DNA of 63,470 bases, counting the filler, from Reclinomonas americana ATCC 50394 (Eukaryota), in the NCBI GenBank assembly GCA_048213135.1. It is 12 parts of 11 records of this genome, joined end to end, with 100 filler letters (N's around TTAATTAATTAA, not from the genome) between each part and the next. Parts side by side here need not be neighbours in the genome. Positions count along the whole stretch, not along the records: positions 5,820 to 13,376 come from PS015962.1; positions 13,477 to 14,665 come from AFZH01016280.1; positions 14,766 to 25,678 come from PS015963.1; positions 25,779 to 27,174 come from PS015964.1; 8 more parts are not named here. The stretch is one strand, 5' to 3'. Position 1 is the stretch's first letter. Each line of letters begins with the position of its first letter. Shown here in pieces: positions 6,630-25,967 of the stretch. The notes below the pieces were generated by a model. It saw nothing but the letters and a program-made list of their open reading frames with translations, ran no database searches and was not told where the DNA came from. Made by a program: the position numbers and the translations under genes.

Positions 6630-7213
6630 TTAGAGGAGGCTGAAGGCCTCGGTGAGTGCGCCGCCGACAGCGCCTGTGAGGGGTGGGGAAGGGAGGGTGA
6701 AAGGGAAGGGATGAGCGAGTGGGTGAGAGAGAAGGAGTGATTGAGTGAGTGAGAGAGTGAGTGAGTGAGTGGGGGTGAGTGAGTGTGTGTGTGTGAGTGA
6801 GTGTGTGTGTGTGTGTGTGTGTGTGTGAGTGTGTGTGAGAGAGTGAGTGAGTGTGTGTGTTTGTGACAGTGTGTTCTCCAGTTCTCTTGCTCACCAGTCA
6901 CGGCACCGCCAAGGGCTCCCGGGCCCGCGCCCACACCTCCGAACTGTTATCAGTGTGCGAGAGAGTGTGAGAGTGAGTGCGAGAAGTGACACATTGACTC
7001 TCTCAAAGATGCGATGGGTGTTTTCAGTGACGCAACAAAGGCACCGCCAATGGCACCAGTGGCAGCTCCCACAGCAGCGCCCTCACCTGTGAGTGAACAG
7101 AGAGAGAGAGGAGAGAGAGAGAGAGAGTGAGTGAGAAATCAGACATGAGAGCAGAAAGCAGGCTGCGTACCAGCGTGAATGGCAATCTCCTCGGCGTCGT
7201 GCTCCCAGCTCAT
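6630..7213 (-). CDS. Glycine-zipper microprotein copy A (61 aa, C-terminally shorter), bacteriocin-like
   Basis: Exons 7213-7171, 7086-7037, 6943-6895, 6673-6630 give MSWEHDAEEIAIHAGEGAAVGAATGAIGGAFFGGVGAGPGALGGAVTGAVGGALTEAFSLL*. Exons 1-3 (43/50/49 nt) have the same sizes in all four paralogs. Confidence 0.8.
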
Positions 7214-7908
7214 TGTGTGTGTGTTTTGCTCTCAGAAAAAACTTCAAAAAAAACAAAGGGGGGTACCGCAACAATTGGGGGACACGGGGACACCCCTTTT
7301 TTTACCCACTGGGGTACGGGGGATCGCGAGAGAAATTTTTTTGGGGGACGGGACTTTTTAACGGTGGGCGCCTGTGCAAGTCGGACGTGCACAGGTTGCG
7401 AGACCTGGTGAGGGTTGGGGGACACCTCCGAAACGAGGTGGAAAAATGGGGGACAGTGACAATTCTGGGCGAGCCAAAAAGGTTGCGGCCCCCCCCCCAA
7501 ACAAGGAAGTGTTTGTCGATCAGTCGATGAATGTGTGAAGATGCGACGTTCATCGTCGATGGTCAACTTGCAGTGTAAGCAGTTGTTGCACTGACTGCTG
7601 TTTCCTGCAAGTGCATCGCTATGCTCTCGATCGCAGCTGATCGTGAGGGGCGATTGCGAAGTCATGCATATGATTATGAGTGGCGTATGCTTCCTCTCCC
7701 CTCCTCCAGTGCCACGCGTGTCGTACACACTACGACAGGCGGTGCAGTTACACAACGAACGTCGACTGACCTGCTTCTGTCCCCGTTTCACTTCTGTGCG
7801 ACTAAGACGGACGGAGAATTCACCGTCACCCCGCCCTCCCTCACCTCCCCACCCCTGCTCTTTCTCTCTCTCCCACCCTTCTCTCTCCCTCTTTCTTCTC
7901 TTCCCATC

Positions 7909-9586
7909 ATGTTCCTCCCCTGCCTGTTACTGCGAGGCCACACTGACCGCGTATCGTGTGTTGCTCTTGTTCCCGATGGACAGCGCATTATCAGCGGCAG
8001 CTTTGACAAGACGATGCGAGTGTGGTCTCTGGTGACTGGCGAGGACGTGAGACGGTTGGAGGGGCACACTGCCGCAGTGTGTTGTGTCGCCGTCACTCCG
8101 AGCACTCAATTTGCTGTCAGCGGAAGTCTTGACAGCACGGTGCGTGTGTGGTCACTGGCGAGTGGCGAGGAAATGCGACGACTGGTGGGGCACACAGCCC
8201 CGGTGCTGTCGATCGCGGTTACGTCCGATGGTCAANNNNNNNNNNNNNNNNNNNNNNNNNNNNNNNNNNNNNNNNNNNNNNNNNNNNNNNNNNNNNNNNN
8301 NNNNNNNNNNNNNNNNNNNNNNNNNNNNNNNNNNNNNNNNNNNNNNNNNNNNNNNNNNNNNNCATATTCTCAGTGGGAGTTATGATCAGAATGTGCGTGT
8401 GTGGTCACTGGCAACTGGGGAGAAGGTGCGACTGCTGGAGGGACACACTGGATGGGTGGTGTCGGTCGCCGTTACTCCCGATAGTCAGCACATAATCAGC
8501 GGGAGTGACGACAAGACAGTGCGCGTGTGGTCACTGGCGAGTGGAGAAGAGGTGCGACGACTTGAGGTACACACCGGTGATCACTGGGTGCTTACTGTTG
8601 CCGCTGCTCCCGACGGTGAGCACATTGTGAGTGGGAGTCATGACAACATGGTCCGAGTGTGGGCAGCGGCAAGTGGGAGAGAGGTGCGACGATTGGAGGG
8701 ACACACTGACGGGGTGCGGTCTGTGGCAGTCTTCCCTGACAGTCAGCACATTGTGAGTGGGGGTCAAGACAGTTCAGTGCGTGTCTGGTCACTGGCAAGT
8801 GGCGAAGAAGTGCGGCGACTGAAGGGACACACTGACTGGGTGTGGTGTGTCGCCGTCTCGCGCGATGGCCAGCACATTGTGAGCGNNNNNNNNNNNNNNN
8901 NNNNNNNNNNNNNNNNNNNNNNNNNNNNNNNNNNNNNNNNNNNNNNNNNNNNNNNNNNNNNNNNNNNNNNNNNNNNNNNNNNNNNNNNNNNNNNNNNNNN
9001 NNNNNNNNNNNNNNNNNNNNNNNNNNNNNNNNNNNNNNNNNNNNNNNNNNNNNNNNNNNNNNNNNNNNNNNNNNNNNNNNNNNNNNNNNNNNNNNNNNNN
9101 NNNNNNNNNNNNNNNNNNNNNNNNNNNNNNNNNNNNNNNNNNNNNNNNNNNNNNNNNNNNNNNNNNNNNNNNNNNNNNNNNNNNNNNNNNNNNNNNNNNN
9201 NNNNNNNNNNNNNNNNNNNNNNNNNNNNNNNNNNNNNNNNNNNNNNNNNNNNNNNNNNNNNNNNNNNNNNNNNNNNNNNNNNNNNNNNNNNNNNNNNNNN
9301 NNNNNNNNNNNNNNNNNNNNNNNNNNNNNNNNNNNNNNNNNNNNNNNNNNNNNNNNCGGGCGATGACGAGACAGTGCGGGTGTGGTCCACGCCGCTGAGC
9401 CTTTCTCGGCGGGAGCTCGAGTGCGGACAGGCGGCTTTGTTGGCGGTGCAGGAGATGCAAGAAGAGGAAGAAGACGAGGGAGAAGATCCGCGGTGCTTGG
9501 TGGAGATTGTGATGCGCTGCTTCCTGGTCGAGGATGCTGAGGCCATTGTCTATCGGTGTTCCACGGATTCACGGCTGTGCCTGTAA
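7909..9586 (+). CDS. WD40-repeat protein, paralog 1 (interrupted by two gaps)
   Basis: MFLPC start, GH...VSG..D..VRVWS repeats and the shared C-terminal tail ending DSRLCL*. Confidence 0.85.
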
Positions 9587-25094: not shown

Positions 25095-25373
25095 TTTGTT
25101 GATGGACGATTGCCTTTGCTCACAGAAAAAAAACTCGTGAAATGAAAATTGGTGACGCGACGGAGATATCGAAAAATGCAACCTCTTCATGACGACGTGC
25201 ATTGTGTGCTGCACATTGTCTCCGCCGCACGCTTCTCTGCACTCCAACAAAGAAAGGGAAATTCATTGGCGTTGCTCAGCGCTCTCTTCTTCTGATCACA
25301 TGTTCGAATTCATGCAAGAAGTGCGCAAACTTGTGTGCAGGAGAGGGAGGAACCGCTGTCGCGCAAAGCCATT

Positions 25374-25967
25374 TTAGAGGTGGAAGTGGTGGTTGAGGAG
25401 GTTAAATCCCTCGTCAATGGCACCGCCCACGGCACCTGTGCAAATAGAGTAATCGTGAGCAGACTCGGAAAGCGTCACTCTCCGCGTCTCTCCCCCCCCC
25501 CTCTCACCAGTGGCAGCGCCGGCGAGGGCTCCCGGGCCCGCACCCACACCGCCGAACTGCAGGAGTGGATCATGATGCGATGTGAATTCGAAGAGTGAGT
25601 GCGAGAACTTTGAAATGCCAGTTGCAAACACATGGATGATGACGCAACGAAAGCACCGCCAACGGCACCAGTGGCAGCNNNNNNNNNNNNNNNNNNNNNN
25701 NNNNNNNNNNNNNNNNNNNNNNTTAATTAATTAANNNNNNNNNNNNNNNNNNNNNNNNNNNNNNNNNNNNNNNNNNNNTCCACCAGCAGCACCCTCACCT
25801 GTGCGTGCGCGAGGGGAGAGTGAGAGAGTGAGAGAGCGGAGAGAGAGAGAGGCGAGGGAGTGCGTCATGTCGGCCGCAGCGCGTTCACACGCAGCGCCCG
25901 CATGCACGTGCGCGGTGGACTCACCAGCGTGAACGCCAATCTCCGAAACGTCGTGCTCCCAGCCCAT
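25374..25967 (-). CDS. Glycine-zipper microprotein copy D (67 aa, short introns)
   Basis: Exons 25967-25925, 25798-25649 (20+30 nt either side of a linker gap = exactly 50 nt), 25556-25508, 25435-25374: MGWEHDVSEIGVHAGEGAAGGAATGAVGGAFFGGVGAGPGALAGAATGAVGGAIDEGFNLLNHHFHL*. Confidence 0.85.

Follow-up and report, generated by a model that had tools for sequence, protein, structure and literature searches.

The closest described counterparts of the locus discussed here are fungal pairs of receptor and effector genes. As far as the accessible parts of the sources describe them, NWD2/HET-S is defined by a motif common to receptor and effector (PMC3321046), its features being a NACHT domain together with that motif (PMC3321046, PMC7885112, PMC10197012), two-gene clusters of a sensor and a pore-former are known in fungi and bacteria (PMC10197012), and the repeats of Podospora NWD proteins are 'up to 100%' identical (PMC1805685). 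On the effector side, the portions available to us describe killing as one use of glycine-zipper hairpins, in Cdz (PMC5380434) and Tde1 (PMC10240207), and other uses in C19orf12 (PMC12384588) and in microcin amyloid (PMC13188072). The present analysis concerns a window, i.e. the whole stretch of 63,470 nucleotides (nt, filler included) that was analysed, a gapped scaffold from the intron-rich genome of the eukaryote Reclinomonas americana ATCC 50394. A sequence-only reading of this window had proposed a sensor-effector defence locus at 6630..25967, in which glycine-zipper peptide genes flank an array of WD40 genes, and the peptide and WD40 genes are indeed positioned as it stated. They are probably two real, separately working gene families that became neighbours in an unstable, duplication-prone region, the local WD40 proteins not being dedicated activators of the peptides.

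The peptide genes of the window are the following:

6630..7213, minus strand: peptide gene A, 61 amino acids; exons 7213-7171, 7086-7037, 6943-6895, 6673-6630
21181..22218, minus strand: peptide gene B, 67 amino acids; exons 22218-22176, 22078-22029, 21710-21662, 21242-21181
23184..25094, minus strand: peptide gene C, 67 amino acids; exons 25094-25052, 24945-24896, 23915-23867, 23245-23184
25374..25967, minus strand: peptide gene D; exons 25967-25925, 25798-25649, 25556-25508, 25435-25374

A second scaffold (contigs C4447-C4453) is colinear with the locus and 85-95% identical to it, and the single-copy neighbour genes are 94.5-97.8% identical between the two. We read it as the other haplotype and count it as the same event as the window locus; a recent segmental duplication is a possible alternative, and an independent locus was rejected on the colinearity and the identity of the single-copy neighbours. 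Exon sizes of 43, 50, 49 and 44 or 62 nt recur without an internal stop in 6/6 complete copies, while exon 2 of D (25798-25649) is split by a scaffold gap, its two pieces totalling the usual 50 nt. All peptide introns are GT-AG, intron 2 opens with GTTGCGT in all four window copies, and the allele of A in C4447 has identical exon sizes and a single amino-acid change. Allelic differences fall on 7 of 148 synonymous sites and on 2 of 401 nonsynonymous ones (Fisher p=0.002), and the peptide genes are under purifying selection. Bacterial proteins found with the exon-3 motif extend upstream into the residues supplied by exon 2, which is independent support for the exon 2-3 junction, and the predicted gene models are firm. 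Chance open reading frames (ORFs) were rejected as an explanation by the conserved exon sizes, the splice sites, a nonsynonymous rate (dN) below the synonymous rate (dS) and the bacterial match across the exon 2-3 junction. In both haplotypes A ends 6 residues earlier than the other three peptides (window 6630-6640), and the DNA past its stop retains a resemblance to their ends.

The family appears to be confined to this locus and its allelic scaffold, since four independent searches found it only there. The exon-1 and exon-3 motifs have 8 and 7 genome matches, all in window contigs or in C4447-C4451; the exon-2 motif with 2 mismatches has 13, of which 7 lie at the locus and 6 are chance matches to unrelated sequence; a protein search of the genome places 11/11 matches at this locus; and a genome search with a bacterial hairpin returns copy D only. 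Each peptide has an acidic N-terminus of 15 residues followed by two G-x3-G-x3-G helices (G17-G33 and G36-G52) with a Gly-Pro-Gly turn between them, giving two five-glycine zippers. G/A/V/L/I/F make up 70-74% of the residues, alongside 6-7 acidic residues, 2-4 His, 0-3 Asn+Gln and no Lys or Arg, and the peak 19-residue hydropathy is 1.36. Double-glycine leader dyads have a characteristic spacing of hydrophobic residues upstream. In class II microcins the dyad is GG, GA or GS, according to the part of the source at hand (PMC13188072). No leader ending in one of these dyads was seen by eye in the peptides: residues 14-15 are Ala-Gly, and the Gly-Ala at 17-18 comes without the usual upstream hydrophobic spacing.

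The hairpin matches bacterial sequences. The exon-3 motif is present in 39 bacterial and 48 metagenome stretches, of which 25/39 and 38/48, respectively, share the hairpin context and were kept by that filter, and 50 distinct segments were aligned. A hidden Markov model (HMM) of the 25 bacterial hairpins gives the spliced A, B and C 48-50 bits, a score reached by 0/300 shuffles of each, and the best hairpin match is 63% identical over 46 residues. The hairpins occur in Treponema Nif11-leader bacteriocin-like precursors, DUF6861 (PF21724) proteins and phage tape-measure and tail-lysin segments, and some hairpin-bearing C-termini are what we take to be RHS-like. A size-limited search with the hairpin profile yielded 26 small proteins, mostly YMGG-zipper lipoprotein-like, with one PF10439 member (P0020) that has a Lys/Arg-free core of 54 residues and the same central motif. 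The peptide module can thus be taken as established, at the level of sequence, to be a predicted glycine-zipper hairpin of the membrane-associated kind. Other searches were negative: PDB sequences gave 0 matches to the hairpin profile, Pfam gave no HeLo or HELL domain for the exon 3-4 read-through, and a homologue search with the read-through of D from exon 3 through the intron into exon 4 brought 1 candidate and none that scored, with no usable match in the atlas.

The WD40 side of the locus consists of five intronless genes on the plus strand, W1-W5, all five with Pfam WD40 matches:

7909..9586, plus strand: W1, WD40-tail gene with two N gaps
10113..11183, plus strand: W2, intronless WD40-tail gene, 356 amino acids, seven-blade propeller and two-helix tail
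14785..15864, plus strand: W3, WD40-tail gene, 359 amino acids, 7 Pfam WD40 repeats
18312..19240, plus strand: W4, WD40-tail gene; 5' end in the gap 18292-18311, first blade lost to an assembly gap in both haplotypes
19737..20786, plus strand: W5, WD40-tail gene, 349 amino acids, tail slightly shorter

Pfam finds 7 repeats in each of W2, W3 and W5, which begin 4-6 residues ahead of the first repeat, and 6 are visible in W4; the span of W1 exceeds seven blades, which makes it either one longer gene or two with the gap between them. The fold model of W2 is a seven-blade propeller with helices at 293-316 and 327-350 (predicted local distance difference test score 89), its closest solved folds being regular bacterial or designed propellers. 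Repeats within a gene fall short of the near-identity known from fungal receptors, their identity averaging 0.50-0.56 (about 52%) at the amino-acid level with a maximum of 0.69. A tree of 34 rows has a branch that sets the eight WD40 rows of the locus apart from the others (Shimodaira-Hasegawa-like approximate likelihood ratio 91, not starred), the tree being obtained by a quick search only, with W1 and gapped or short rows excluded; this fits local multiplication of one founder. W3 and its counterpart in the second haplotype differ at 69 residues, and the counterpart looks like a mosaic with W2/W4-type blades, a sign of exchange between copies. Contigs C999-C1001, whose numbers immediately precede those of the window contigs, carry another WD40-tail array, on a separate branch of the tree.

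The start codons of A and W1 are divergent and 696 bp apart, in agreement with the head-to-head arrangement and roughly 700 bp claimed earlier, and the stop codons of W5 and B are 394 bp apart. On the second scaffold the actin gene that the window carries inside the block is missing, W5 and B are separated by a sixth WD40 gene (W6), and the A-W1 spacer, free of a 240-bp inverted-repeat element, measures about 440 bp. Between haplotypes this spacer is 81.5% identical, against 94.5-97.8% for the neighbouring genes; it is poorly conserved and unconstrained, and carries an insertion in one haplotype. In their WD40 genes, actin and spacer the two haplotypes are thus not alike, in keeping with an unstable region.

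Beyond the locus the WD40-tail family is very large. In the assembly, 997 sites match a tail pattern of 23 nt exactly (reversed control 0), a lower bound that misses W5 and counts both haplotypes and possibly broken copies, and 150/150 scored tail candidates reach E<=4e-18. Of the matches listed, the first 100 (all from large contigs) group into 46-62 clusters, from which about 460-620 loci are extrapolated. Among 1.84 billion representatives, a profile of 43 tails found 3 proteins with HMMER. The best (E 1.7e-26) is labelled at its source as a Reclinomonas americana expressed sequence tag product and shares 56% identity with W2 across 117 columns, a single hit by which at least one family member is transcribed in that species; in the other two, P0002 and P0003 (metagenome-type, 381 and 394 amino acids), the same tail stands behind far more divergent propellers, so the tail is older than the repeat type of this genome. 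Word-based and atlas searches with the tail gave no usable match, no Pfam family matches the tail, none of the F-box or SOCS-box kind appearing for the 43 tails at E<=10, and the tail model, a long two-helix hairpin, has no PDB match at E<=0.001; an F-box or SOCS-box (BC-box) adaptor was rejected on these three grounds.

Blade variation peaks at top-face positions. The sites mapped to the selected HET-E/HET-D codons 7, 9, 25 and 27 take the top four places for variability when 137 repeats from other stand-alone genes are compared, and rank within the top six in 23 window repeats. The ratio of dN at these four sites to overall dS is 0.52 in the 6 closest pairs, 1.20 in 3 pairs and 1.61 in 15 pairs near saturation, compared with 0.21-0.32 elsewhere, for 24 disjoint pairs among 49 genes with at least 5 clean blades, a counting method and an inferred mapping of positions. 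The pattern is suggestive of diversifying selection, short of proof. NACHT matches in the genome number at least 97, most of them in single ORFs of 1,000-1,700 amino acids (e.g. L201:3771-7898, L203:2443-6813, L208:1139-6271) that combine an unmatched N-terminal domain, NACHT, a pentapeptide linker (5/6 genes examined) and about 10-14 WD40 repeats, without the tail. The WD40 repeats of 12 such genes have a best identity of 0.72 to window repeats, against 0.71 for other stand-alone genes. A fungal-type receptor chassis thus exists in this organism, elsewhere than at this locus. The hairpin HMM has no match in 15 long Walker-A ORFs examined, on which a glycine-zipper domain within NACHT proteins was rejected.

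In mechanistic terms, one founder of the approximately 1,000-gene family of stand-alone propellers would have landed here and then multiplied locally. Each WD40 protein would be a seven-blade propeller whose variable top face binds some partner, possibly in defence, and whose conserved two-helix tail probably docks it onto a common downstream factor. The peptides would insert into a membrane and oligomerise through their glycine faces, like bacteriocin cores and effector zippers. Lacking Lys and Arg and having 6-7 acidic residues and 2-4 His, they may insert preferentially at low pH. Permeabilisation of the membrane would be their most likely effect, at roughly equal standing with a structural role.

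Several points weigh against the reading of two unlinked families, and those on the adjacency are shared with its rivals. All eight peptide genes (8/8) are at a WD40 array, an arrangement kept in both haplotypes, and extrapolation from the first 100 listed tail matches puts the chance of this at 0.025-0.034 when the WD40 locus has to fall inside the peptide cluster of 6 kb and at 0.10-0.14 for a target of 26 kb (0.03-0.14 in all); at the same time, this is one event, singled out in hindsight from about a thousand array flanks, and more-than-chance adjacency is not shown. A and W1 are divergent and close enough for a common promoter. If the local WD40 proteins kept the peptides inactive, or else triggered them, upon binding a foreign ligand, the released hairpin killing the cell or an intracellular bacterium, the head-to-head pair, the variable top face, a hairpin typical of membrane-active bacterial proteins and the fungal and bacterial precedents for sensor/pore-former clusters (PMC10197012, to the extent accessible) would all find a place. 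Such a dedicated pair is nevertheless improbable. No NACHT or protease domain that could serve as a signal switch was found by Pfam in the 17 window ORFs scanned, 27/27 comparisons for a shared peptide-WD40 motif are at shuffle level (at least 27 of 200 shuffles score as high), and about 99% of tail-bearing genes are without a peptide neighbour, the locus holding 11 of at least 997 with both haplotypes combined. Near-invariant peptides adjoin a WD40 set that changes between haplotypes, and dS among the WD40 paralogues (0.19-0.92 on the scaffold) ranges well beyond that among the peptides (0.09-0.34), so that the histories of the two families do not match. Genome-wide co-localisation, which the earlier claim called for, is not seen: there is a single locus in two haplotypes, and near 94 other tail genes (278.5 kb) the best hairpin score is 7 bits, as against 19-28 for the four exon-3 copies here. 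Of the two families only the WD40 one occurs independently elsewhere, across the genome (997 tail matches). From the proposed pairing of HET-E-like WD40 proteins with a membrane-disrupting peptide there survive the variable top face, the repeat type of the NACHT receptors and the match to a bacterial membrane-inserting hairpin; the coupling finds no support, for want of a NACHT domain and a common motif, with so many tail genes lacking a peptide and the spacer so poorly conserved. That the neighbouring WD40 proteins gate the hairpin directly, as a NACHT-free design of sensor and killer, is accordingly a long shot. A looser association, in which peptides and WD40 proteins are co-induced without contact because fast-evolving regions collect defence genes, with a promoter perhaps common to A and W1, is unlikely too: a tail gene does occur in 2/15 stretches around NACHT genes, the divergent actin recurs beside arrays and the A-W1 spacer is only 440-696 bp, but 2/15 is near chance (rough expectation about 1), the spacer, diverged as it is, tolerates the 240-bp insert about 45 bp upstream of the start of A, and B, C and D each have their own upstream region.

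The remaining points on that side concern the peptides. Divergent copies with other exon motifs could be missed, the searches having gone exon by exon over exons of 15-20 residues; outside the 10-residue search motif the HMM match is only 5-6 composition-corrected bits, which 3, 0 and 6 of 300 shuffles reach; lipoprotein-like YMGG zippers outscore the bacteriocin P0020 against the peptides; and no signal peptide or double-glycine leader is evident, which leaves a route to a bacterium unexplained. Bacterial descent is not established, because the sequence is of low complexity and carries only a weak signal beyond the search motif. The peptides might instead be structural or organelle-membrane proteins, either hairpins of lipid droplets or mitochondria, as in C19orf12, or subunits that build an extrusome or lorica by amyloid-like self-assembly, a view that concerns peptide function and is compatible with the absence of a link to the WD40 genes. 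It is quite possible, if a little short of an even chance. The strong conservation is unlike that of an arms-race gene, a leader is lacking, lipoprotein-like proteins are the nearest of the small bacterial matches, two bacterial hairpin proteins near the peptide match Pfam C19orf12 weakly (E 0.006 and 0.03), and Cdz proteins and the microcin MccAB1 form aggregates or amyloid, in the sections available of the respective papers (PMC5380434, PMC13188072). On the other hand, in their size, their Lys/Arg-free core and their want of further domains the peptides agree with mature bacteriocin cores, P0020 being an example, and four copies suggest a need for dosage. More tentatively, it is conceivable that a bacterivorous jakobid took a bacterial bacteriocin-core hairpin and turned it into a leaderless, intron-split family of pore-formers directed against prey or intracellular bacteria, or serving as executioner for its very large WD40 and NACHT-WD40 repertoire.

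The actin gene mentioned above belongs to a divergent family whose copies, 68-77% identical at the DNA level, are spread over about 10 contigs (L231 in C281, L232 in C232, L233 in C31, L235 in C29). A tail-to-tail arrangement of this actin and a tail gene is seen at three independent loci, each time with the same orientation, and so is commoner than adjacency to the peptide; the count comprises 4/14 stretches around actin copies, which are two allelic pairs, plus the window. The DNA between actin and tail gene did not align between loci. It is speculation that the two form a co-duplicated unit, or that the actin is a decoy or guardee for the WD40 proteins. This gene and the other features in and beside the block are:

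5889..6578, plus strand: left neighbour gene, intronless ORF of about 229 amino acids, no family match, one copy per haplotype, tail-to-tail with peptide A
7258..7496, no strand: element of about 240 bp with 15-nt terminal inverted repeats, in the A-W1 spacer about 45 bp upstream of the A start codon, one haplotype only
11553..13269 (approximate), minus strand: divergent actin-like gene with introns, this haplotype only, dispersed family
14167..14299, no strand: dispersed-repeat piece of 133 bp ending in TAA/TTA repeats, partial copies at 11429-11491 and 15877-15979
16223..17903 (approximate), minus strand: multi-exon gene with two hydrophobic segments (read by eye), both haplotypes

The claim that flanking genes are mostly single-copy agrees with the left neighbour; the interior of the block holds two unrelated genes, the actin and the multi-exon gene, and is not a clean bracket. 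The latter has a hydrophobic segment toward each end, a Cys-containing middle and one paralogous pair (C215 and C287), and Pfam gave no match for 2 of its ORFs scanned. The element at 7258..7496 is probably MITE-like (miniature inverted-repeat transposable element). Copies of the abundant TAA/TTA-ended repeat are 92-95% identical, and it may be the 3' end of a LINE-like element, i.e. a non-LTR (long terminal repeat) retroelement of the long interspersed kind; two pieces of it border the haplotype-specific actin insert. An inverted repeat pair of 80% identity flanks the block (4013-4183 and 26272-26454), an Rfam scan of 5000-28000 gave 0 matches, and a CTLH-domain gene is followed by three tandem units of about 290 bp each (28989-30281). 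Further genes of the window lie within 26662-28937, 30900-36100, 36900-40400, 50000-55200 and 56100-60800; Pfam matches among them identify a CTLH/RING protein and a thiamine-pyrophosphate enzyme, and others read by eye are presumably protein kinase, MBOAT-like acyltransferase and RNase T2-like genes.

The new part here is the peptide family, a putative killer and apparently an undescribed, conserved eukaryotic stand-alone form of the bacterial hairpin. A literature search at title and abstract level, mostly of open-access papers, found no published protist glycine-zipper peptide, eukaryotic bacteriocin-like gene, jakobid NOD-like receptors (NLRs) or such WD40 arrays, and the protist pore-formers that it did find are saposin-like. 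If the peptides kill, they would represent a new type among the antibacterial or cell-death effectors of protists, and they are short enough for direct synthesis and testing. Independently of this locus, a discoban flagellate that has about 1,000 variable WD40 genes, together with at least 97 NACHT matches, bears on the age of NLR-type recognition. With hundreds of arrays in the genome, the neighbour of any one array is weak evidence for a pathway.

Compared with the described systems, as far as the accessible parts of the cited papers go, the locus resembles NWD2/HET-S in that a WD40-type gene adjoins a gene for a probable membrane-targeting protein, and differs in having no NACHT or NB-ARC domain, no common amyloid motif and no HeLo or HELL domain, its candidate effector being a hairpin of 61-67 residues and the pairing not recurring in the genome. 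With HET-E/HET-D (HNWD, PMC1805685) it has in common the 42-residue repeats, the variation at HET-E-equivalent sites and, in W3, signs of exchange. The WD40 protein here, however, is a stand-alone single propeller with a lineage-restricted helical tail, its within-gene repeats are about 52% identical and lack the near-identity of concerted evolution, and dN/dS at the sites is 0.5 in the 6 closest pairs. On the peptide side, class II bacteriocins (PF10439), Caulobacter CdzC/CdzD (PMC5380434) and class II microcins (PMC13188072) are likewise small and very Gly/Ala-rich, with an extended GxxxGxxxG, according to what was available of the sources; the peptides described here are eukaryotic, are encoded in four exons and have no double-glycine leader, and neither a type I exporter nor an immunity gene was found among the window ORFs scanned. 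The YMGG/OmpA-type zipper lipoproteins (PF13441, PF13436, PF13488), DUF6861 (PF21724) and the phage segments contain the same hairpin, but as part of a larger or lipid-anchored protein. C19orf12/Nazo, in the accessible part of its description (PMC12384588), is a eukaryotic glycine-zipper hairpin that is not a toxin and lies within a larger protein, whereas in Reclinomonas the hairpin is the whole protein.

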